Of a stretch of 64,000 nt of DNA, positions 20,946 to 30,179 are shown in pieces (the first letter of the stretch is position 1; every line of letters starts with the position of its first letter). Source of the DNA: an uncultured bacterium (GTDB taxonomy: Bacteria; Patescibacteriota; Minisyncoccia; Moranbacterales; GWC2-37-73). The stretch spans positions 37,574 to 101,573 of the forward strand of contig CAINNK010000014.1 of the NCBI GenBank assembly GCA_903851135.1, given 5' to 3'. The position numbers and the translations under genes were made by a program. The notes below the pieces were generated by a model. The model had not been told where the DNA came from. It did no database searches and saw nothing but the letters and a program-made list of their open reading frames with translations.

Positions 20946-21851
20946 TTACCTGAGTGCTTGTTCAAGTGCTGTTCCGGCATCGGTCTTGCTGTCACGATAT
21001 TTCTTGATTAAAGCAACATAACCTGAAAGTCCATATTCTTCAGCAAAGGAGCCCTTAATCTGCCGAGAACCAGCAATAACAACTGCTCCTGCAGGAATGA
21101 TAAGGGGATTTTCTTTTGTCCCTTTGTAGATTTTTGCCTCGACAAGGTCGTAAACAGTTATTGACCTATTCAACATGACCCCAGTACCGATAACCGACCG
21201 CTCCTTGACAATAGTGCCTTCGTAGATACCGCAGTTGCCTCCCACCATGACATCATCCTCGATGATGACCGGCATGGCGCCTATCGGTTCGAGCACACCC
21301 CCGACCTGAACGCCGGCCGAAAGATGACACTTCTTGCCAACTTGGGCGCAGCTTCCGACAAGGGCATGAGAATCAATCATGGTGCCTTCATCAACATAGG
21401 CTCCCACATTAACATAGGCCGGCGGCATCATCACAACCCCGGAAGCCAGATATGAACCGTCGCGAACTGCCGATCCTCCGGGAACAATGCGGACATTATC
21501 TGCCGGAATGAATTTTTTAAGTGGCCAGGTATCCTTGTCAAAAAACTCCCAACCTAAGGCCTCCTGTGAAGGGAAAGCTCCCAACCCAAAAAAAATCATG
21601 TATTCCCGAAGCCTGCCAAGTCGCATACCGAGCAGAATCCCTTCCTTAACCCAAGCATTAACTACCCAGTCATCACCCCGCTTTTCAGCAGCCCGAATTT
21701 TTCCTTCATTTAACAATTTTTTGAAATGGTCAAAATCACTCCGCGCCTCTGCATAAGTTTCAGGTCTACGCAAATCATCTACCGTAAGTTTTGAGTGATT
21801 AATGATGGATTGCTTAATAAGACCAATAGCAAAATCCAAGCCTGTATTCAT
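20946..21851 (-). CDS. dapD: 2,3,4,5-tetrahydropyridine-2,6-dicarboxylate N-succinyltransferase
   Basis: Hexapeptide-repeat block [43 protein letters not shown]...IIEDD is near-identical in pattern to E. coli DapD. Confidence 0.85.
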
Positions 21852-22951: not shown

Positions 22952-23116
22952 ATGAAAAGTAAGATGTTTTTTGGCGGACTTTTTTTTGCAGGTGGCTGTT
23001 TCCTTGCGTTTAAAGCTTTCTCAAAGATCCTTGAGGAAGTTAGTATGGCAATAACACTTGCCACTATTTCAGGCATGCCACCAGTGATGGGAATTAAGAA
23101 GGAAACTCAAAAAAAG
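22952..23116 (+). CDS. small hydrophobic peptide (54 aa) with strong Shine-Dalgarno
   Basis: Below ORF-track size cutoff. AAGGAG sits 8 nt upstream of the ATG; product MKSKMFFGGLFFAGGCFLAFKAFSKILEEVSMAITLATISGMPPVMGIKKETQKK. Confidence 0.45.
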
Positions 23117-23260
23117 TAGGTTTCGGGGTTTTTATTTTGCGGAAGAGAAAAGAAAAGATTAAACAAACTTTTCTCTTCCAAAAAGCGACATTATTCTCAT
23201 GTAATGGCGCTTTTTTTAATTCTTTTTTGACGATTTCATTTTTTTCAAATACTAATTGTT

Positions 23261-23330
23261 CCACTTTTCTCTCAAATATTTTTGCTCGCCGAGAAATTGG
23301 CGGTAGCGCTGAAATTTTTTTGAGTTTCAA
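23261..23330. repeat. direct repeat R1 flanking AbiE module
   Basis: About 86% identical to R2 (24778-24846); has one extra A in the A-run relative to R2. Confidence 0.8.
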
Positions 23331-23331
23331 A

Positions 23332-24117
23332 TTATTTTTTTTGTAAACTCAGTTTTGATTCTATAAAATCCTTAAACCCAAGCACCCGGGAAACCTGATC
23401 AACTTGGATCAAAAACGGCTCCACATCTTTAGCTAGAAAAGCAAAATCAAACTCTTCACAACGTGCTAACATTTTTTCACTAAATTCAGCTCTTGAAAGA
23501 TTTAGGGTTTTTTCAATATAAGCAAAATCTGGCTGAGTTTTGCCATAAAGATAACTGACATCATAAAAATCTCTTCCCTTTTCTCTTTTGCGACCAAGAA
23601 TCGCCATCATTTTTTGCGCAAGCAATACTTCGATGGGATTAACTAAAATATCCCGATAGATGTCAAATTTGTTCAAGGTAAGAACCTGGGGCTGGAACAA
23701 TTTTTCTTTTTTGACAGTGTCGATTCGCACAAGAATTTTTTCATTCGGTGCCGAACCAAGATTGGCTTCCTGAAGAATGTGAGGAAATTTTATATAGCAA
23801 TGATATGCGCCCTTTTCAATCAAACGCGCTTCCATAGCAAAACCCTTAATTTTCATATCATCAACAACTTCATTCATCAGTTCTTGAAATTCATCAAAAG
23901 ATAGTCCAAAATTATCAAAGTCCAAGTCTTCCGAAAAACGATTTCCACCGAAGGCAATTCGAATCGCCGTGCCACCAATAAAACTTAGCTGCGCGCTTTT
24001 CTTTTGCTTAAAAATCGAATCAAGAATTTCATATTGCAAATATTCCACCAAAATACTTTTTGAAGGATTACTTTTAGAATCAGTATAATATTTTTTCAAT
24101 TGATCAAAGGTTAGCAT
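23332..24117 (-). CDS. AbiEii/AbiGii-family nucleotidyltransferase toxin (type IV TA / abortive infection)
   Basis: 261 aa; DUF1814 signature SFIGGTAIRIAFGGNRFSEDLDF. Confidence 0.75.
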   Translation of the reverse strand: MLTFDQLKKYYTDSKSNPSKSILVEYLQYEILDSIFKQKKSAQLSFIGGTAIRIAFGGNRFSEDLDFDNFGLSFDEFQELMNEVVDDMKIKGFAMEARLIEKGAYHCYIKFPHILQEANLGSAPNEKILVRIDTVKKEKLFQPQVLTLNKFDIYRDILVNPIEVLLAQKMMAILGRKREKGRDFYDVSYLYGKTQPDFAYIEKTLNLSRAEFSEKMLARCEEFDFAFLAKDVEPFLIQVDQVSRVLGFKDFIESKLSLQKK

Positions 24118-24716
24118 ATTTCAAATAGCTTATGCACGATTTTAGTTAGTTTTTCAATCTTAAACTCTTCAAGATACTGTTCTATTTTTTTTCTATCTAT
24201 AATTCGCTTAAGTTCACTGCCGTTGATTCTCAATTCCTCAAGGTCTGTTTGATTGTTGAGCTTGCCTAAATTAAAATAAAAATAATCCAGCAAAGCCTTC
24301 TCCGGCTGCGCTATGAGATATTTTCCAAATTTTGTTTCAATTGGATTGTATCCGAAAAAAAGTTCAGACTTAATATGTCGAAATGTGAAAACTCCAAAAT
24401 CATTGGAAAATTTCCTAGTGGTTTTTGTGGTAACGCAAGTTTGAGCATGCACCATTTCGGGAATCAAGCCATAATAACTCAGCATAGTTTCCATAGATAA
24501 ATAGCTCGGCTGATAAATCAAAAAGGAGATTTCCTGCGCCGATATTTCTGCTCGCTTCTCAACAAAGAAATACATTCCCTTTTTTAGACGAGCCAAATAG
24601 CCTCTTTTTTGCCACAAAGACAGTTGATAATTATAAACATTAAGCTTTTTGAGCAAAATATCCAAATTAGTAAAATATGGCTTATTTAAAGCATTTTTGA
24701 ATTCTTGATATTTCAT
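24111..24716 (-). CDS. AbiEi-family antitoxin/transcriptional regulator
   Basis: 201 aa, size and position typical of AbiEi; 7-nt overlap with the AbiEii gene; N-terminal wHTH-like segment. Confidence 0.65.
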   Translation of the reverse strand: MKYQEFKNALNKPYFTNLDILLKKLNVYNYQLSLWQKRGYLARLKKGMYFFVEKRAEISAQEISFLIYQPSYLSMETMLSYYGLIPEMVHAQTCVTTKTTRKFSNDFGVFTFRHIKSELFFGYNPIETKFGKYLIAQPEKALLDYFYFNLGKLNNQTDLEELRINGSELKRIIDRKKIEQYLEEFKIEKLTKIVHKLFEIC

Positions 24717-24753
24717 AAAATTATTAAATTTAATAATCTACTGAAATTATAGC

Positions 24754-24864
24754 TCAATTTAAAAAATAGTCAACCAACCACTTTTCTCTTAAATATTTTT
24801 GCTCGCCAAGAAACTGACGATAACGCTGAAGTTTTTTGAATTTCAGAAATTTCAGAGGTGCCAA
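24754..24864 (-). CDS. candidate 36-aa upstream small ORF (TTG start) containing repeat R2
   Basis: MAPLKFLKFKKLQRYRQFLGEQKYLREKWLVDYFLN, ends 38 nt upstream of abiEi. R1/R2 substitutions are codon-periodic in this frame (see findings). Confidence 0.3.
   Translation of the reverse strand: MAPLKFLKFKKLQRYRQFLGEQKYLREKWLVDYFLN
24778..24846. repeat. direct repeat R2 flanking AbiE module
   Basis: CCACTTTTCTCTTAAATATTTTTGCTCGCCAAGAAACTGACGATAACGCTGAAGTTTTTTGAATTTCAG versus R1. Confidence 0.8.
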
Positions 24865-24891
24865 GAATTTGTATTTTTTTATTTAGCAAAT

Positions 24892-27800
24892 CTACTCAGC
24901 AAGCCTTTCATCAATTGCCCTTAAGAAATTAGATTGAAATAAATCAAATGTTGATGTACTTAAATATCTTTTTCTAGCTTCCTGACCGATAAGTATTAGC
25001 GACTGTGGATTATCTATAATCTTAATTATTATACTTTTTAATTGTTCCACATTATTAGTTTCTATAACAAAACCAGTCTTACCATCTTCAATAATATATT
25101 TAGCACCAACATTTTGACTAATTATAGATGGTCTGCCAAGCATTGCACCTTCAATAGCAACGATTGATGTTGGTTCCTCACGAGATACAACAACAAATAC
25201 ATTGGTTTCGGTAAAAATCTTCTTTTTTCTGTTTTGATCGATAATCAAACCATGCCATATTACATTATCAATACCATTGGTTTTTTCCTTCAGTTTTAAT
25301 GCAAAACTATCAAAAGCCTGCTCGTTGCCGATAATATTAAATACTGCCCTTTGCCTATAATCAACCGGCAATTCCAAAATAGCAGCAACAAAAACATCCT
25401 GAGCTTTTCTTTCTTCAACTGTTCCTACCATACTAAATTGAATCTTACCATCAATTTTCATTTCTTCATTACAATACTGGTCGTCGAAACCCATGCTTAA
25501 AACTTTTACATTGTTTAAATATTTTACAACTGCTTCTTTTGAATATTCACTAGCAACATAAACTGACGCCTTCGTATTTTTTAAAACATATTCCAAAGAA
25601 GGTTTTTTCATACTAAAATGAGGGATAAAAAAAGATTGAATATTCCATGCCTCATGAATAAACCATATAATCGGAACCAACCCCTCCATCGCATAAACTG
25701 CTGGATACGTAACCACTGTATTTGCTATAATAATATCAAAATTTTTTGCAAAGTATTTAAATATAAAATCATTATCTTGAGCAAAATTATTTACAATAAC
25801 TACTATATCCAATTCTTCAAATGCCGCCCTAAACGGTCCATCGACGTATGAATAAACAACAGGATAACCTCCACTATTAATAACTGATCTTGCCATATTG
25901 AGAGCGACCATTGGTGCTCCCGTCATTGTTAATTCATGAACAACAATTAGCGCATCAAATTTATGTTCTATAAGGTTTTCCTGATGAGAAAAAATCCCAA
26001 ATTGTTCAGGAAGATAGCCCTCCAATTGGGCTCTCATACTTTTAGTATAATAAGGATCATTTGAAACATATTTTCCCCATCTTTTTAGCACAAAAATATC
26101 AGCCTTATCTTTTTCTATGTGCCAAGAATGATTTCCAATATGATGAAGCGTTGAATAGGGTGTGTAAACACACCTATAGCCCTTGTCTCTTAACCTGAAA
26201 CTCAAATCTAAATCACTATGTCCTGCTGGTGTATTCACAGCATCAAATCCACCTACTTCAAAAAAAACTTTCTTTCTGATTGCAAAACATGCTCCGCTTA
26301 GTATTGAGACATTGCGAACCCTATTTGCAAGTGGTTCATTTTTATTTTTTCCATTTAAAAAAGTTCCACAAAATGGCTTAGAATTCGTTGTCATCCCAGC
26401 ATATTGAATAGTATCGTTCTCCCACAACAATTTAGGAGAGACAGATCCTATTTTTCTATCAAAATACAAAAACTCAATCAAATTCATTATCCAATCATCA
26501 CTAATTGGGAACACATCATCATTTAAAAATATCACGATTTCGCCAGTTGCAACATCAGCACCTTGATTACATTTATCAGAAAAATTGTATTTCTTATCAT
26601 ACGTTGAAAATACTAAATTATTTGCTTTATTAGCATAATAAAGTTTTAATTCTCCTGCCAGTGCTGAATTAGTAACAATAACGATTTCTAATTTTGTATA
26701 ATTTGTTTTTTTAATAATTGAGTTTATTGATTTTTTCAGATTATCACCAGAATCAGATGGTATAACTATTGAAACTTTTTCATTAGGATTAAATAAAATT
26801 TCTGCACGATTTGCAACACTATTTCCTGTTACTTTTACATCAAATCCGCGCCTCCTCATTGCATCTTCTAGCGCTAACAGATTAGTTTTCTGTGCAAAAT
26901 CCTTTCCTCCCGCAGCAGCTGAACCAGGTATCTGACGCCAAAAATAAAGTACTTTTTCTACATGAAAAATTTTATCAGTAACCTCGCTAACACGTAACGC
27001 AAGATCATAATCCTGAGAATAATTATAGTCAGACCTAAAAAATCCAACTTTTTCTACAATTTCTTTCTTGTATACACTAAGATGTCCAGTATACATGTCA
27101 TTTAGAAGATATTCCGGACTCCAGTCTGGCTTAAAAATAAAATCTGTATACCTGTTATCGATTGTTTTTTTACATTCATCCGTATAAACTAAATCAACAT
27201 CATGATGCAAGTTAATTTCGTTAACAATCCAATAAAGAGCATCCTCCTTAATTTCATCATCATTGTCCAGGAGTGCGATAAATTCACCAGTTGCATTTTT
27301 TAACGCCTCATTTGATGCTCCAGAGATATTTTTATTCTCCTTTCCATAGATTATCTTTATTCTTGAATCGATGTTTTCCCAGCTTTTTAAACAATTTAGC
27401 GTTTCCTTTTTTGTGGATGCATCGTCATAAAGACATAATTCCCAATTAGTATAAATTTGCGCCCTAACTGATTTGATGCATTCATTAAGCCATCTAGATT
27501 CAACATTATAGACTGGAGTTATAACTGAAATTTTAGGTTTGTGCTTGAATTCTTCGATATTATTTCTTAATTTTTCGACTTCATTACTTGTCAACTTAAG
27601 CAACCATCTACCAAAATCAATTGAGCTGGAATTTATCAAATCTTTATTTAAAACCCCCTTGCCATATACAATAAAATTAAAGGAACGCAAGAGTGCAACA
27701 CTTAAACCCTCTTTTTTAATAGAACTCACACCTGTCCTTAGAAGATTTTTTAATTTATTTGCTAATAGCTTTTTGTAAGCAACAACCTTATGAAAAAAAC

Positions 27801-27942
27801 AGATGAATCCATATTTTTTTATAACCAAAAAAATAGAAACTGGAATATTCCAAATTGAAATCTTTTCATCCCTAATGGAATAATTAGTCTCTTTATTTTT
27901 TTCATCTATTATATTTATATTATCTTTTTCAGTATTCTTCAT
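24892..27942 (-). CDS. three-domain glycosyltransferase (GT2 + GT2 + GT4)
   Basis: 1016 aa; two GT2 cores (...YDDASTKKETL...LDNDDE...; ...FLNDDVFP...) then a C-terminal GT4/GT1 domain (...EPTSIVAIEGAMLGRPSIIS...GKTGF...). Confidence 0.8.
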   Translation of the reverse strand: MKNTEKDNINIIDEKNKETNYSIRDEKISIWNIPVSIFLVIKKYGFICFFHKVVAYKKLLANKLKNLLRTGVSSIKKEGLSVALLRSFNFIVYGKGVLNKDLINSSSIDFGRWLLKLTSNEVEKLRNNIEEFKHKPKISVITPVYNVESRWLNECIKSVRAQIYTNWELCLYDDASTKKETLNCLKSWENIDSRIKIIYGKENKNISGASNEALKNATGEFIALLDNDDEIKEDALYWIVNEINLHHDVDLVYTDECKKTIDNRYTDFIFKPDWSPEYLLNDMYTGHLSVYKKEIVEKVGFFRSDYNYSQDYDLALRVSEVTDKIFHVEKVLYFWRQIPGSAAAGGKDFAQKTNLLALEDAMRRRGFDVKVTGNSVANRAEILFNPNEKVSIVIPSDSGDNLKKSINSIIKKTNYTKLEIVIVTNSALAGELKLYYANKANNLVFSTYDKKYNFSDKCNQGADVATGEIVIFLNDDVFPISDDWIMNLIEFLYFDRKIGSVSPKLLWENDTIQYAGMTTNSKPFCGTFLNGKNKNEPLANRVRNVSILSGACFAIRKKVFFEVGGFDAVNTPAGHSDLDLSFRLRDKGYRCVYTPYSTLHHIGNHSWHIEKDKADIFVLKRWGKYVSNDPYYTKSMRAQLEGYLPEQFGIFSHQENLIEHKFDALIVVHELTMTGAPMVALNMARSVINSGGYPVVYSYVDGPFRAAFEELDIVVIVNNFAQDNDFIFKYFAKNFDIIIANTVVTYPAVYAMEGLVPIIWFIHEAWNIQSFFIPHFSMKKPSLEYVLKNTKASVYVASEYSKEAVVKYLNNVKVLSMGFDDQYCNEEMKIDGKIQFSMVGTVEERKAQDVFVAAILELPVDYRQRAVFNIIGNEQAFDSFALKLKEKTNGIDNVIWHGLIIDQNRKKKIFTETNVFVVVSREEPTSIVAIEGAMLGRPSIISQNVGAKYIIEDGKTGFVIETNNVEQLKSIIIKIIDNPQSLILIGQEARKRYLSTSTFDLFQSNFLRAIDERLAE

Positions 27943-27948
27943 ATTGGA

Positions 27949-28959
27949 CTAATCATTACGAATTTTATTTTTTAACTTAATGTATTTTTCTCTTAATTTC
28001 CAAAATTTTGATGATTTTATAAATTCAATTTCTTGCTTTTTTTGTAAAATACTTTTATCACATACTTCAATATCTTGTTTTAGTTGGTCTACAGACTTTT
28101 TTAATAAAACATTTTCATTTTCATAACTGCCACTTGACTCCAATAAGAATGATTCCAAAAAAGCATTATTTTTTCTTATACACAACAAATTGCAATAATC
28201 GTTTTCATTAAGCGAATTCTTCCATAAGCAAACATTTTCTGGTAGTTTTATTAATTTTTTTTCATTTTCTTTAATTATGATTATAATAAACCCTAATTTT
28301 GATATTCTTTTTAGAAAATCTGCTGGATCCGTATTTGCATTTTTTAAACACTTTGGATTAAATTCAATTAATAACTTTATGTCTTCATTATTTTTAATGA
28401 CCTTCTCCATTCCATTAAGAACAAACAGCTCATGACCTTCGGTATCTATTTTTATGACATCTATTTTTACATCACCAAAAAAATCATCTAGTGATACAGC
28501 TTTAACGATCCTTTTTTCCAATATCTCAGTGTTAGGATGCTCGTAAAAACCAGACGAATCAGAAGCTTCTGTTACATTAAAGTTCTTTTCTCCTGAATCA
28601 TCAGAAATTGCCAGATTAAATGTTTTAACATTTAAAAAGTCATTTTCCTTAATATTTTTATTTAAAACATCAAAATTTTCCTTAACTGGTTCAAAAGAAT
28701 ATACCACTCCGCTTTTATTTTTTGTTGCTGCAAGCAAAGAATAGTAACCATAATTAGCACCAACATCAACAACTGTCGAATCTTCTTTTATGTAATTTAA
28801 AAACAAATCAGAAGAAAATTTTTCATATTCATTTTCGATATAATGTTCTTTATATCTTTTGGTTACATTAATAACGAAATCTGCAAACCTAACACTGATA
28901 AGATTATTTATATCATAATCGTGTGGAAATTTATTTTCTTTTTTTGTTATATTTTCCAT
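27949..28959 (-). CDS. FkbM-family SAM-dependent methyltransferase
   Basis: VVDVGANYGYYS and KIDTEGHE motifs; C-terminal coiled coil. Confidence 0.7.
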   Translation of the reverse strand: MENITKKENKFPHDYDINNLISVRFADFVINVTKRYKEHYIENEYEKFSSDLFLNYIKEDSTVVDVGANYGYYSLLAATKNKSGVVYSFEPVKENFDVLNKNIKENDFLNVKTFNLAISDDSGEKNFNVTEASDSSGFYEHPNTEILEKRIVKAVSLDDFFGDVKIDVIKIDTEGHELFVLNGMEKVIKNNEDIKLLIEFNPKCLKNANTDPADFLKRISKLGFIIIIIKENEKKLIKLPENVCLWKNSLNENDYCNLLCIRKNNAFLESFLLESSGSYENENVLLKKSVDQLKQDIEVCDKSILQKKQEIEFIKSSKFWKLREKYIKLKNKIRND

Positions 28960-30179
28960 TCGTGTTCAATATTTATTATCCCTTCAGTGACACCTTCGGA
29001 TGTTACCTTAAATGGAGCCTTGGAATAATACTCTTCATATAAATGATTAAAACTCTCACCGGCTAGCAATATCTTTATTTTATATATTCCATTAATTAAT
29101 GGAATATTTTTAAAAGAAATAGTAAATGACTTTTTAATTAATATGTCCTTAGTATTAATATGATCAAAATTATTATTTAAACCAATAATGTAATTTCTCT
29201 CTCTATCATAAATAGAAACTGAAACATTAAAGGATTTATTATCTTTTAGCAGAATTTCTATTCCCTCTCCTTCTATTTCAACAGTCATAATCATCTCATC
29301 TCCAAAATGAAAACTATTTGTTTTTTCTCCCTTTGAGTTAAACAAAAGTAAATCTTTCACTTTAATTTTGTTCACCTTTTTATTAATGCTAACGCTTTCC
29401 TTCTCTTGAATCTCATTCTTAATAATTTCATTCTCTCCGTCTGACATATTTTGTTTAATATATTCACTTCCAACTTCCTGTGGGTCACCAATCAATTCAA
29501 TCTCCCCATTTCGAAGAAGCATTAAACGATCGCAATATCTTTGGGCTGTTGATAAATCATGAGTGACTAAAATAACTGTCTTACCTATTTCTCGATATCT
29601 AACAAACTCCGAAATACATTTTGCCTGAAAATTTGAGTCTCCCACAGCTAAAACTTCATCCATCAACAAAATTTCGCGATTAGCATGGATGGAAACCGAA
29701 AAAGCCAAGCGCACTTGCATACCGGAAGAATAATTTTTGAGTTTTTGATCGATGAAACGTTCCAGCTCAGAAAATTTCACAATAGAATCAAATTTCTGAT
29801 CAATTTGCTTTTTGGTCATTCCTAGCACTGTAGCATTGAGATAAACATTATCGCGACCAGAAAGTTCTGGATTAAAGCCAATTCCTAATTCCAAAAACGG
29901 TGAAATGCGCCCATCAATTTTAATTTTTCCCTTGTCAGTTTGATAAATCCCAGCCAAAATTTTTAATAATGTGCTTTTACCACTCCCATTCCTGCCGATA
30001 ATCCCAAAAAATTCACCCTTTTTAACCTCAAAAGAAACATCATCAAGCGCCTTAAATTCCTCATAGCCACCTTTCTTGAAAGCATTCACAGCCGCACCGC
30101 GCAAAGAAGACACCTTTTCGTGAGGTATCCTAAAAGTTTTGCTGATATTTTTAACACTAATGGCAATATCTTTTTCCAT
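28947..30179 (-). CDS. polysaccharide ABC exporter ATP-binding protein (Wzt/TagH-like) with C-terminal extension
   Basis: Walker A GRNGSGKST, signature YSSGMQVRLAF, Walker B LLMDE; about 160-aa C-terminal domain, possibly glycan-binding. Confidence 0.85.
   Translation of the reverse strand: MEKDIAISVKNISKTFRIPHEKVSSLRGAAVNAFKKGGYEEFKALDDVSFEVKKGEFFGIIGRNGSGKSTLLKILAGIYQTDKGKIKIDGRISPFLELGIGFNPELSGRDNVYLNATVLGMTKKQIDQKFDSIVKFSELERFIDQKLKNYSSGMQVRLAFSVSIHANREILLMDEVLAVGDSNFQAKCISEFVRYREIGKTVILVTHDLSTAQRYCDRLMLLRNGEIELIGDPQEVGSEYIKQNMSDGENEIIKNEIQEKESVSINKKVNKIKVKDLLLFNSKGEKTNSFHFGDEMIMTVEIEGEGIEILLKDNKSFNVSVSIYDRERNYIIGLNNNFDHINTKDILIKKSFTISFKNIPLINGIYKIKILLAGESFNHLYEEYYSKAPFKVTSEGVTEGIINIEHEWKI

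Follow-up and report, generated by a model that had tools for sequence, protein, structure and literature searches.

Diverged fragments of neighbouring genes bracket some abiE cassettes in Candidatus Moranbacteria and relatives, suggesting entry by insertion with target duplication

Known insertion routes and the abiE cassette

Integration of circular DNA through a single segment of homology (insertion-duplication, or Campbell-type integration), a mutagenesis tool in transformable streptococci and Bacillus, leaves the insert between two direct copies of the homology segment. Integrative elements such as prophage e14 in the E. coli gene icd likewise typically duplicate a gene end, in a diverged form whose differences are mostly synonymous. 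A third precedent comes from gene units that move with no integrase or transposase of their own: insertion with long target duplication was reported for restriction-modification genes (Nobusato et al. 2000, Gene 259:99, as cited in PMC2654758) and treated further by Furuta, Abe and Kobayashi 2010 (PMC2853133), who describe repeats that can extend across a start or stop codon, together with a bias toward naturally competent species. A “virus-like life cycle” of such units has been proposed, never demonstrated (Furuta et al., PMC2853133).

The locus described here, together with its relatives, resembles the restriction-modification cases in that a small self-contained defence or addiction unit with no called integrase or transposase lies between direct repeats of local target sequence, tens to hundreds of bp long (69, 70, 75 and 273 nt here, all above the >30 bp used to define long target duplication), in that the insertion can fall within an operon, and in that repeats often span a neighbour's start or stop so that the neighbouring gene stays intact. 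It differs in cargo (an AbiE toxin-antitoxin or abortive-infection pair versus restriction-modification genes), in host (Candidatus Moranbacteria, Patescibacteria) and in the decay of the target gene at the present locus. The main departure from the compared published cases is that the repeat copies are diverged, with 83–88% identity and mostly synonymous differences against 44/46 to 47/47 matching positions.

Within the window (the whole 64,000-nt stretch of DNA that we analysed), the cassette consists of the following features.

24111-24716, minus strand: abiEi, antitoxin/regulator, 201 aa (PADLOC AbiEi)
23332-24117, minus strand: abiEii, nucleotidyltransferase toxin, 261 aa (Pfam PF08843; PADLOC AbiEii)
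24746-24773, minus strand: predicted abiE promoter, with -35 box TTGACT (24773-24768), 16-nt spacer and -10 box TATAAT (24751-24746)
24710-24747, minus strand: inverted repeat with palindrome ATTATTAAA-TTTAATAAT, between the -10 box and the abiEi ATG

From its sequence, this cassette is predicted to be an ordinary AbiE type IV toxin-antitoxin/abortive-infection pair, autoregulated at a palindromic operator. The two genes form a bicistron (24716-23332, minus strand) with a 7-nt overlap. AbiEi is matched over its full length by PADLOC (residues 1-199, E = 6e-61) and falls below the cut-offs of Pfam AbiEi_4 (E = 1e-3, 19.5 bits against 25) and NCBIfam TAA_AbiEi (E = 4e-10, 39.8 bits against 150); AbiEii lies above the cut-off of PF08843 (E = 4e-22), matches PADLOC along its full length (E = 7.5e-83) and shows the nucleotidyltransferase motif FIGGTAIRIAFGG...SEDLD. 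The first-pass annotation of this DNA had thus correctly recognized an overlapping AbiEi/AbiEii pair (PADLOC supports both proteins, PF08843 the toxin) and both coordinate ranges, but had listed the names in reverse order. The predicted promoter matches 11/12 consensus positions, and its boxes are kept at equal distance from the ATG in most aligned related cassettes. The palindromic inverted repeat is likewise conserved in related cassettes and is a probable candidate for the AbiEi operator, binding being suggested by the known autoregulation of AbiEi. AbiE of Streptococcus agalactiae and Lactococcus shares the overlapping bicistron, the toxin motif, an N-terminal winged-helix region in the antitoxin and an inverted repeat between promoter and start codon, a likeness that is at the family level only. 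No compositional anomaly of the cassette was found.

Glycosyltransferase relics at both cassette edges

The cassette is bracketed by two copies of a short repeat, R2 upstream and R1 downstream, in the following setting.

24778-24846, minus strand: repeat R2, upstream copy, ~23 codons, the end of the 32-codon glycosyltransferase relic
23261-23330, minus strand: repeat R1, downstream copy, same glycosyltransferase tail fragment, ~23 codons, starting directly after the abiEii stop
24778-24873, minus strand: glycosyltransferase relic, 32 codons (YKFLAPLKFLKFKKLQRYRQFLGEQKYLREKW), identified by tblastn with proteins P0130 and P0131 and by phmmer
24892-27942, minus strand: 1016-aa glycosyltransferase with two GT2 domains and a GT4/GT1 domain, outside the cassette
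23136-23184, no strand assigned: hairpin with 17-nt arms, an inverted repeat between the convergent abiE side and a 55-aa gene

R1 and R2 align without gaps over 60 nt at 88% identity (23261-23320 with 24778-24837) and with one indel over 69 nt at 87%; direct repeats around abiE, as first annotated, were therefore borne out, with almost exclusively synonymous differences. The 64-kb window contains only two copies (none are expected by chance), which excludes the generic intergenic repeat at many loci that had been considered beforehand. Translated from the minus strand, each copy gives LK(F/L)KK(L/F)QRYRQFLGEQKYLREKW, and their differences, all transitions, fall at codon positions 1/2/3 in the ratio 3/0/6, changing two amino acids among 23 codons and none at the six differences in an 18-codon core. 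The codon periodicity noted earlier carries much less weight than the chance figure of 1/243 attached to it: in simulation, randomly placed transitions look as coding-like in some open frame with p ~0.016–0.019. What establishes the coding origin is the match to genuine glycosyltransferases. Two further details of the first annotation hold as well: R2 sits inside an intact 36-codon TTG ORF (24754-24864), and R1 is frame-broken, with 7 A against 6 A in R2 in a homopolymer and a frame closed by stops.

The unique DNA between R2 and R1 runs exactly from the -35 box to the abiEii stop codon, the promoter starting 4 nt past the end of R2. Reading the sequence directly gave no fusion of R1 to abiEii, R1 being in the wrong frame. 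We also rejected R as a Wzm N-terminal motif (unsuitable spacing) and an R1 hairpin as a terminator (weak, and on the plus strand only).

When the 36-aa ORF was searched by phmmer against 1.84 billion proteins, it matched P0130 (E = 6e-6) and P0131 (E = 3e-5), the match lying in the C-terminal tail, 15 residues short of the stop. Conversely, tblastn of P0130 against the window returned the R2 region (81% across 32 aa, E = 6.5e-15; 72% for P0131), and tblastn also found R1 (62% across 21 aa). P0131 is a GT2 protein (PF00535, E = 1e-24) and shows that single-copy homologues of the repeat exist within intact genes elsewhere. On this homology, R1 and R2 are identified as leftover copies of ~70 nt of 3' coding sequence that once belonged to a family-2 glycosyltransferase. 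Neither window copy continues into the expected last 15 codons of the enzyme; a weak hint of these codons ~30 nt after R1 (p ~0.06) is marginal at best. The 42-aa R2 frame brought up no candidates in a word-index search of proteins, and a degenerate DNA pattern for FLGEQKYLREKW gave 0 matches in the metagenome and viral collections, the former evidently lacking this species. Elsewhere, locus L111 holds this glycosyltransferase tail too, in a truncated copy of 103 aa.

The genomic setting agrees with such an origin in outline. The 1016-aa glycosyltransferase is the last intact gene of a wzt-methyltransferase-glycosyltransferase operon, and P0131 closes a polysaccharide operon, with a two-domain GT2 gene immediately before it. 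Its position is analogous to the window's, but its neighbour is not orthologous to the 1016-aa glycosyltransferase; the P0131 locus (L109) was accordingly rejected as a syntenic empty site, the 672-aa neighbour being only 25% identical.

Recurrence in related cassettes

To place the locus among its relatives, we compared eight related cassettes with both flanks, from Candidatus Moranbacteria and relatives. The window's own host was placed in Candidatus Moranbacteria through its DnaK, at 96% identity. Direct repeats of 69–273 nt, 83–87% identical, bracket four of the eight, and the source of the repeat is a different local gene each time (a glycosyltransferase tail in the window, the start of wzt, the start of a glycosyltransferase gene and the end of uvrB).

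L096: 273-nt repeat, 85% identity, from the 5' end of wzt
L112: 70-nt repeat, 86% identity, from the first 23 codons of a GT2 gene
L117: 75-nt repeat, 83% identity, from the last 24 codons of uvrB
L103: 22-nt hairpin on both sides only

Three of the four repeats are 69–75 nt long (window 69, L112 70, L117 75), and the duplicate re-creates the stop or start of the adjacent gene in L117 and L112. Among random control segments of 1450 nt, 0/600 had flank repeats at E<1e-10. About half of the cassettes in this comparison thus lie between duplicated pieces of adjacent genes, an arrangement that we infer reflects a route of entry without a recombinase of their own.

Pooled over the four repeat pairs, differences at codon positions 1/2/3 number 15/7/41 (41/63 at third positions), a distribution that departs from a uniform spread (P = 3e-7) and, under a model whose rate assumptions are rough, poorly compatible with one copy decaying neutrally in place (P = 2.5e-3). 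The amino acid is altered in 17 of the 50 differing codons, and the L096 repeats contain codon switches for serine (AGT/TCC) and arginine (CGC/AGG). Largely synonymous divergence of this kind points to transfer between lineages rather than simple local duplication.

Pfam listings showed no integrase, transposase or other mobile-element gene called among the neighbours of the window, L096, L098, L100, L103, L112, L117 and L118, and inspection revealed no shared motif at the repeat ends, whose junctions derive from four unrelated genes. Viral contigs searched with an AbiEi alignment yielded distant relatives only, lacking flank repeats, and those searched with the operator motif yielded no matches.

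We found no cassette-free allele or empty site, since every contig of the species carries the cassette with identical repeats. The repeats at 15 same-species loci, and at two more with a 99%-identical AbiEi variant, are identical to those of the window and therefore add no evolutionary information. A scan of the genome collection with the adjacent dapD-like gene gave, at best, Chlorobiaceae matches at 71% with no synteny. Because no empty site was found, “insertion” is read here from architecture alone.

Route of entry and competing explanations

We consider it probable that the repeats are functionless scars, left when a minimal abiEi-abiEii cassette entered by insertion with long target duplication (insertion-duplication). 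The first-pass annotation had offered, as its second idea, cassette boundaries inherited from diverged homologous genes, and the recurrence in related cassettes supports it. In the sequence of events that we propose, a family-2 glycosyltransferase gene would once have followed the 1016-aa glycosyltransferase in the polysaccharide operon, and the entering unit would have been a minimal abiEi-abiEii cassette bounded by its own promoter at one end and its stop codon at the other. The two copies would probably derive from two alleles or orthologues, the recipient's own gene and one brought with the cassette from a related donor, because both copies look diverged under protein-level selection. The recombination mechanism can be sketched from sequence features: the simplest route would be uptake of donor DNA followed by single-crossover (Campbell-type) integration, into the recipient's homologous gene, of a circularised piece comprising the cassette and ~70 nt of donor flank; a homology-anchored illegitimate join would be an alternative. 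Decay of the target glycosyltransferase would later have left the 32-codon relic, and since the larger part of this gene is gone, the scheme calls for additional deletion steps.

Campbell-type integration accounts for the geometry at the other loci as well, a 5' fragment leaving the downstream gene copy intact (L112 and L096) and a 3' fragment the upstream copy (L117). It normally needs homology longer and more identical than 70 nt at 85%, however, and 70 nt at 87% identity is a poor substrate for RecA-type recombination; furthermore, a pure homology model does not predict three similar repeat lengths (69–75 nt). More speculatively, promoter-to-stop defence cassettes in Patescibacteria might have a recombinase-free cycle of their own, looping out as small circles with one host-gene fragment, passing between species by DNA uptake and re-entering by homology at the orthologous gene, which would leave diverged, synonymously differing repeats; we regard such a cycle as unlikely on present evidence. 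Movement of two-gene defence and toxin-antitoxin modules lacking a recombinase is poorly understood, and this locus with its relatives offers sequence-level evidence for one route, in which a cassette would bring a short piece of a neighbouring gene and leave a diverged gene fragment on each side, the neighbouring gene often surviving. A phenomenon known from restriction-modification would thereby also cover an abortive-infection system and would reach the candidate phyla radiation, whose members have small genomes and probably depend on DNA uptake.

The strongest competitor, although we think it unlikely, is a true long target-site duplication, namely a single old insertion at a ~70-nt staggered break, with no donor copy and with identical copies that diverged in place. 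The architecture is exactly that expected of target duplication, the restriction-modification precedent is described in such terms, and three independent cases of 69–75 nt suggest a mechanistic length. Under this explanation at least one copy would be a pseudogene and should vary at all codon positions, contrary to the pooled distribution (P ~2.5e-3) and to the finding that only about a third of differing codons (17/50) change the amino acid. Neither window copy lies in a live gene, yet none of the six core changes alters the protein, and a synonymous divergence of ~0.4–0.6 (a rough estimate) would mean that useless 70-nt fragments were long kept in a very small genome.

Less probable still is that the repeats serve as attachment sites for an integrative element that is non-autonomous, relies on a site-specific recombinase acting in trans and carries a replacement end for its target gene. 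The mostly synonymous gene-end duplicates do resemble those of e14-type elements, in which inserted DNA is likewise flanked by a duplicated gene end, and the L117 and L112 duplicates restore the neighbour's stop or start. Elements of the e14 type, however, bring their own integrase and keep to a single target gene, whereas four closely related cassettes here sit in four unrelated targets (GT2 tail, wzt start, GT2 start, uvrB end), with no repeat-end motif in common on inspection, no recombinase gene called at any locus and a cassette of only 1.45 kb. A site-specific element in either form considered (attachment sites or an integron cassette) fits poorly with the absence of a called recombinase and with the differing junctions from four unrelated genes.

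We give very little credence to the proposal, first made in the initial annotation, that a conserved small protein or leader peptide regulating abiE is encoded by the repeat and duplicated at both cassette ends. The 36-codon ORF at R2 is intact and the R1/R2 differences are synonymous, but the peptide is a piece of a GT2 C-terminal tail (P0130 81% over 32 aa, P0131 72%), internal to a 275-aa enzyme family, and R1 is frame-broken. The ORF (24864-24754) lies upstream of the abiE -35/-10 boxes with no Shine-Dalgarno sequence before its TTG, and is therefore off the cassette's own transcript; nor does it carry a gene call at the places listed for any of the assemblies. No R-like sequence or peptide accompanies seven other related cassettes. 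A short open frame with coding-like conservation beside a defence cassette can be the relic of a gene, and its annotation as a micro-protein is to be avoided.

Two unrelated remnants of old glycosyltransferase genes, flanking the cassette by chance, are equally implausible even in a mosaic polysaccharide locus (compare the truncated tail copy at L111), given that both copies share the same last codon (TGG), that the downstream copy begins exactly at the cassette edge, and that the bracket geometry recurs with other genes at three more loci and in 0/600 controls.

The 55-aa gene at 22952-23119, earlier proposed to belong to the same islet, found no support as a member: it is convergent and lies beyond the hairpin, and none of the other cassettes has a homologue of it nearby. 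The hairpin itself (23136-23184) marks the end of the minus-strand operon region.

The AbiE pair and its setting

The gene pair between direct repeats R2 (24778-24846, upstream) and R1 (23261-23330, downstream) is securely assigned to AbiE in both members on sequence matches, and lies next downstream of a polysaccharide operon.

Features of the AbiE locus
28947-30179, minus strand: wzt, member of the polysaccharide operon
27949-28959, minus strand: methyltransferase, same operon
24892-27942, minus strand: three-domain glycosyltransferase of 1016 aa, same operon
24773-24768, minus strand: -35 box (TTGACT) of the abiE promoter, with a 16-nt spacer and -10 box TATAAT (11/12 consensus positions)
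24111-24716, minus strand: abiEi, full-length PADLOC AbiEi match (E=6e-61)
23332-24117, minus strand: abiEii, Pfam PF08843 (E=4e-22) and PADLOC AbiEii (E=7.5e-83)

The two genes overlap by 7 nt, and the AbiEi matches in Pfam and NCBIfam fall under the curated cut-offs. As a cassette this is an ordinary AbiE pair, and its interest lies in its mode of arrival. The repeats enclose exactly one unit running from promoter to stop: the -35 box starts 4 nt past the end of R2, and R1 starts at the base following the abiEii stop codon. Most of the aligned relatives share the promoter and a perfect palindrome (ATTATTAAA/TTTAATAAT) between the -10 box and the abiEi ATG (window 24710-24773); conservation ends at the -35 box, beyond which the flanks are unrelated. 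The palindrome is probably the AbiEi autoregulatory operator.

A search for an empty site was negative: every contig of this species examined carries the cassette with identical repeats, and a scan of the genome collection returned no syntenic relatives. Five independent assemblies (contigs L002, L003, L005, L006 and L007) end 10-80 nt into the 5' end of abiEi (window ~24640-24707), immediately downstream of the palindrome and R2 in a stretch of 27% GC; these breaks may reflect upstream strain heterogeneity or assembly trouble in this stretch. Elsewhere in the window, DnaK shares 96% identity with a Moraniibacteriota protein, placing the window in Moranbacteria, and a dapD-like hexapeptide transferase gene (20946-21851; GC 0.48-0.52 versus ~0.33 in its surroundings) has its best relatives among species-representative genomes in Chlorobiaceae (71%), with which synteny is not shared; this gene may have been acquired horizontally.

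Glycosyltransferase origin of the repeats

R1 and R2 are 88% identical over 60 nt ungapped and 87% over 69 nt with one indel, and are the only two copies of this sequence in the window (chance expectation, none). On the gene strand both encode LK(F/L)KK(L/F)QRYRQFLGEQKYLREKW, and their nine substitutions, all transitions, fall 3/0/6 at codon positions 1/2/3 and alter two residues. R1 carries one additional A and its frame is shut by stops; R2 lies within a 36-codon TTG ORF. The gene matches, repeat alignment and codon counts thus agree with the first-pass annotation, which had described an AbiE pair bracketed by repeats with codon-periodic differences; its chance estimate for that periodicity was too generous, simulation giving p ~0.016-0.019 for an equally coding-like pattern in some open frame.

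A word-index protein search with the R2 frame and exact-pattern scans of metagenome and viral collections gave no match. Exhaustive phmmer comparison of the 36-aa ORF with 1.84 billion proteins returned three matches at E up to 0.001. P0129, a low-complexity repeat protein (30% identity), was disregarded; P0130 and P0131 showed 73% and 69% identity. P0131 is a family-2 glycosyltransferase (GT2) of 275 aa (PF00535, E=1e-24), and the ORF aligns within its C-terminal tail, which reads ...YKLLAPIKFLKFRKLERYRKFLQEQKYMRKRW-GSEIANDPFYDEKFI before the stop. Searched back against the window, P0130 matched 24873-24778 (32 aa, 81%, E=6.5e-15) and also R1 (21 aa, 62%), both matches terminating at the same TGG codon. 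By these alignments, a glycosyltransferase gene has left a relic of 32 codons, of which R2 is the end, and R1 repeats that stretch in shorter form; the synonymous pattern is there because the DNA formerly belonged to a real enzyme gene. The last 15 glycosyltransferase codons are not clearly present after either copy; there is a marginal hint only: a weak likeness at window 23190-23230, ~30-67 nt 3' of R1 on the minus strand (SEKIKNDPFYNE versus KKELKKAPLHEN), which is unreliable since the region is A-rich (shuffle test p ~0.06).

In its own genome P0131 is encoded by the final gene of a polysaccharide operon, directly downstream of a two-domain GT2 gene, a position resembling that of the window relic, although the adjoining genes are not orthologous. 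The nearest relative to the repeat peptide, P0130 (L111:163-474), is itself a remnant: it covers just 103 aa from the 3' end of a GT2 gene, and upstream of it there is no GT2 domain. Other genomes thus also carry relics of this tail. The R2 ORF (24754-24894 region) is in frame with the 1016-aa glycosyltransferase, with two stops between them (TAG 24892-24894, TAA 24883-24885), probably a coincidence with a 1-in-3 chance.

The proposal that the repeats hold a conserved micro-ORF or leader peptide is rejected: the promoter lies downstream of R2, so the R2 ORF is outside the cassette's own transcript, no Shine-Dalgarno sequence precedes it in the window, and no R-like peptide was found beside related cassettes.

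Flanking repeats in related cassettes

AbiEi relatives (49-77% identity) came mainly from Candidatus Moranbacteria, and for every related cassette with both flanks available, 1.5 kb upstream was compared with 1.5 kb downstream.

Flanking repeats of AbiE cassettes
Window: direct repeat, 69 nt, 87%; glycosyltransferase tail
L096: direct repeat, 273 nt, 85%; 5' end of wzt, with a third, intact wzt copy following
L112: direct repeat, 70 nt, 86%; 5' end of the downstream GT2 gene (start and first 23 codons)
L117: direct repeat, 75 nt, 83%; 3' end of uvrB (last 24 codons plus stop)
L103: only a 22-nt hairpin on both sides
L098, L100, L118: no flanking direct repeat in the 1.5-kb flanks

At all four repeat-bearing loci the copy on the upstream side stops at the abiE promoter, and its downstream partner begins 0-40 nt past the abiEii stop; at L112 and L117 the duplication preserves an intact adjacent gene. 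As a control, 600 random 1450-nt segments were drawn from 1.3 Mb of other loci, and flank repeats at E<1e-10 were seen in none. The pooled pairs show 63 differences, distributed 15/7/41 over codon positions 1/2/3 (P=3e-7 versus an even spread), and 33 of the 50 differing codons are synonymous, with codon switches at L096 for Ser (AGT/TCC) and Arg (CGC/AGG). The annotation's other suggestion, that the boundaries came from diverged homologous genes, is upheld, and the pattern recurs at L096, L112 and L117; the small peptide gene (55 aa) that it had tentatively placed in the same islet is not part of the unit.

Related cassettes repeatedly lie within or beside cell-surface polysaccharide clusters (L098, 3068-6648; L096; L112; L118; window 23332-30179); at L098 the cassette sits between ABC transporter permease and ATPase genes, the next start codon just 9 nt away. 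Directly past the displaced uvrB fragment, a second toxin-antitoxin-like pair (Gp49/HigB-like and HTH_3 proteins; L117:1987-2591) is found, and this site seems to gather such modules.

Proposed mode of insertion

Kobayashi's group has reported insertion with long target duplication in restriction-modification units, which are defence genes lacking mobility genes and flanked by long, variable direct repeats of target sequence (PMC2853133). Start or stop codons often fall within those repeats, operons are among the insertion sites, and naturally competent species account for most cases; the mechanism is unexplained (PMC2853133). The AbiE cassettes share this geometry, but their repeat copies are 12-17% diverged and coding-like. 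The proposed insertion is of a known, mechanistically unexplained kind; what is new is the abortive-infection cargo, the candidate-phyla host and the diverged repeats.

We favour a model in which one repeat copy would be the recipient's own and the other would have been brought with the cassette by a related donor, most economically through single-crossover integration of a circularised fragment or, alternatively, through an illegitimate join anchored by homology. Had both copies instead arisen at insertion and then diverged locally, one or both would have been pseudogenes, with changes at every codon position; for that course a rough model predicts at most ~47% third-position changes, against 65% observed in the four pairs (P ~2.5e-3), and it is this excess that leads us to prefer a donor-derived copy. 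Against donor-copy crossover stand the short, poor homology that 70 nt at 87% offers for recombination, the similar length (~70 nt) of three repeats, and the unclear continuation of either window copy into the enzyme's final codons.

At L096, the downstream copy matches intact wzt at 88% over its first 125 nt and the upstream copy at 72%, and identity between the two copies reaches 96% in their middle parts; the copies are mosaic, and later recombination therefore reshaped these repeats. Three GC-rich in-frame insertions (~27, 39 and 21 nt), absent from the intact wzt copy (L096:6437-6700), are common to both truncated wzt 5' copies (L096:3590-3900 and L096:5413-5700), and one of them is a small hairpin.
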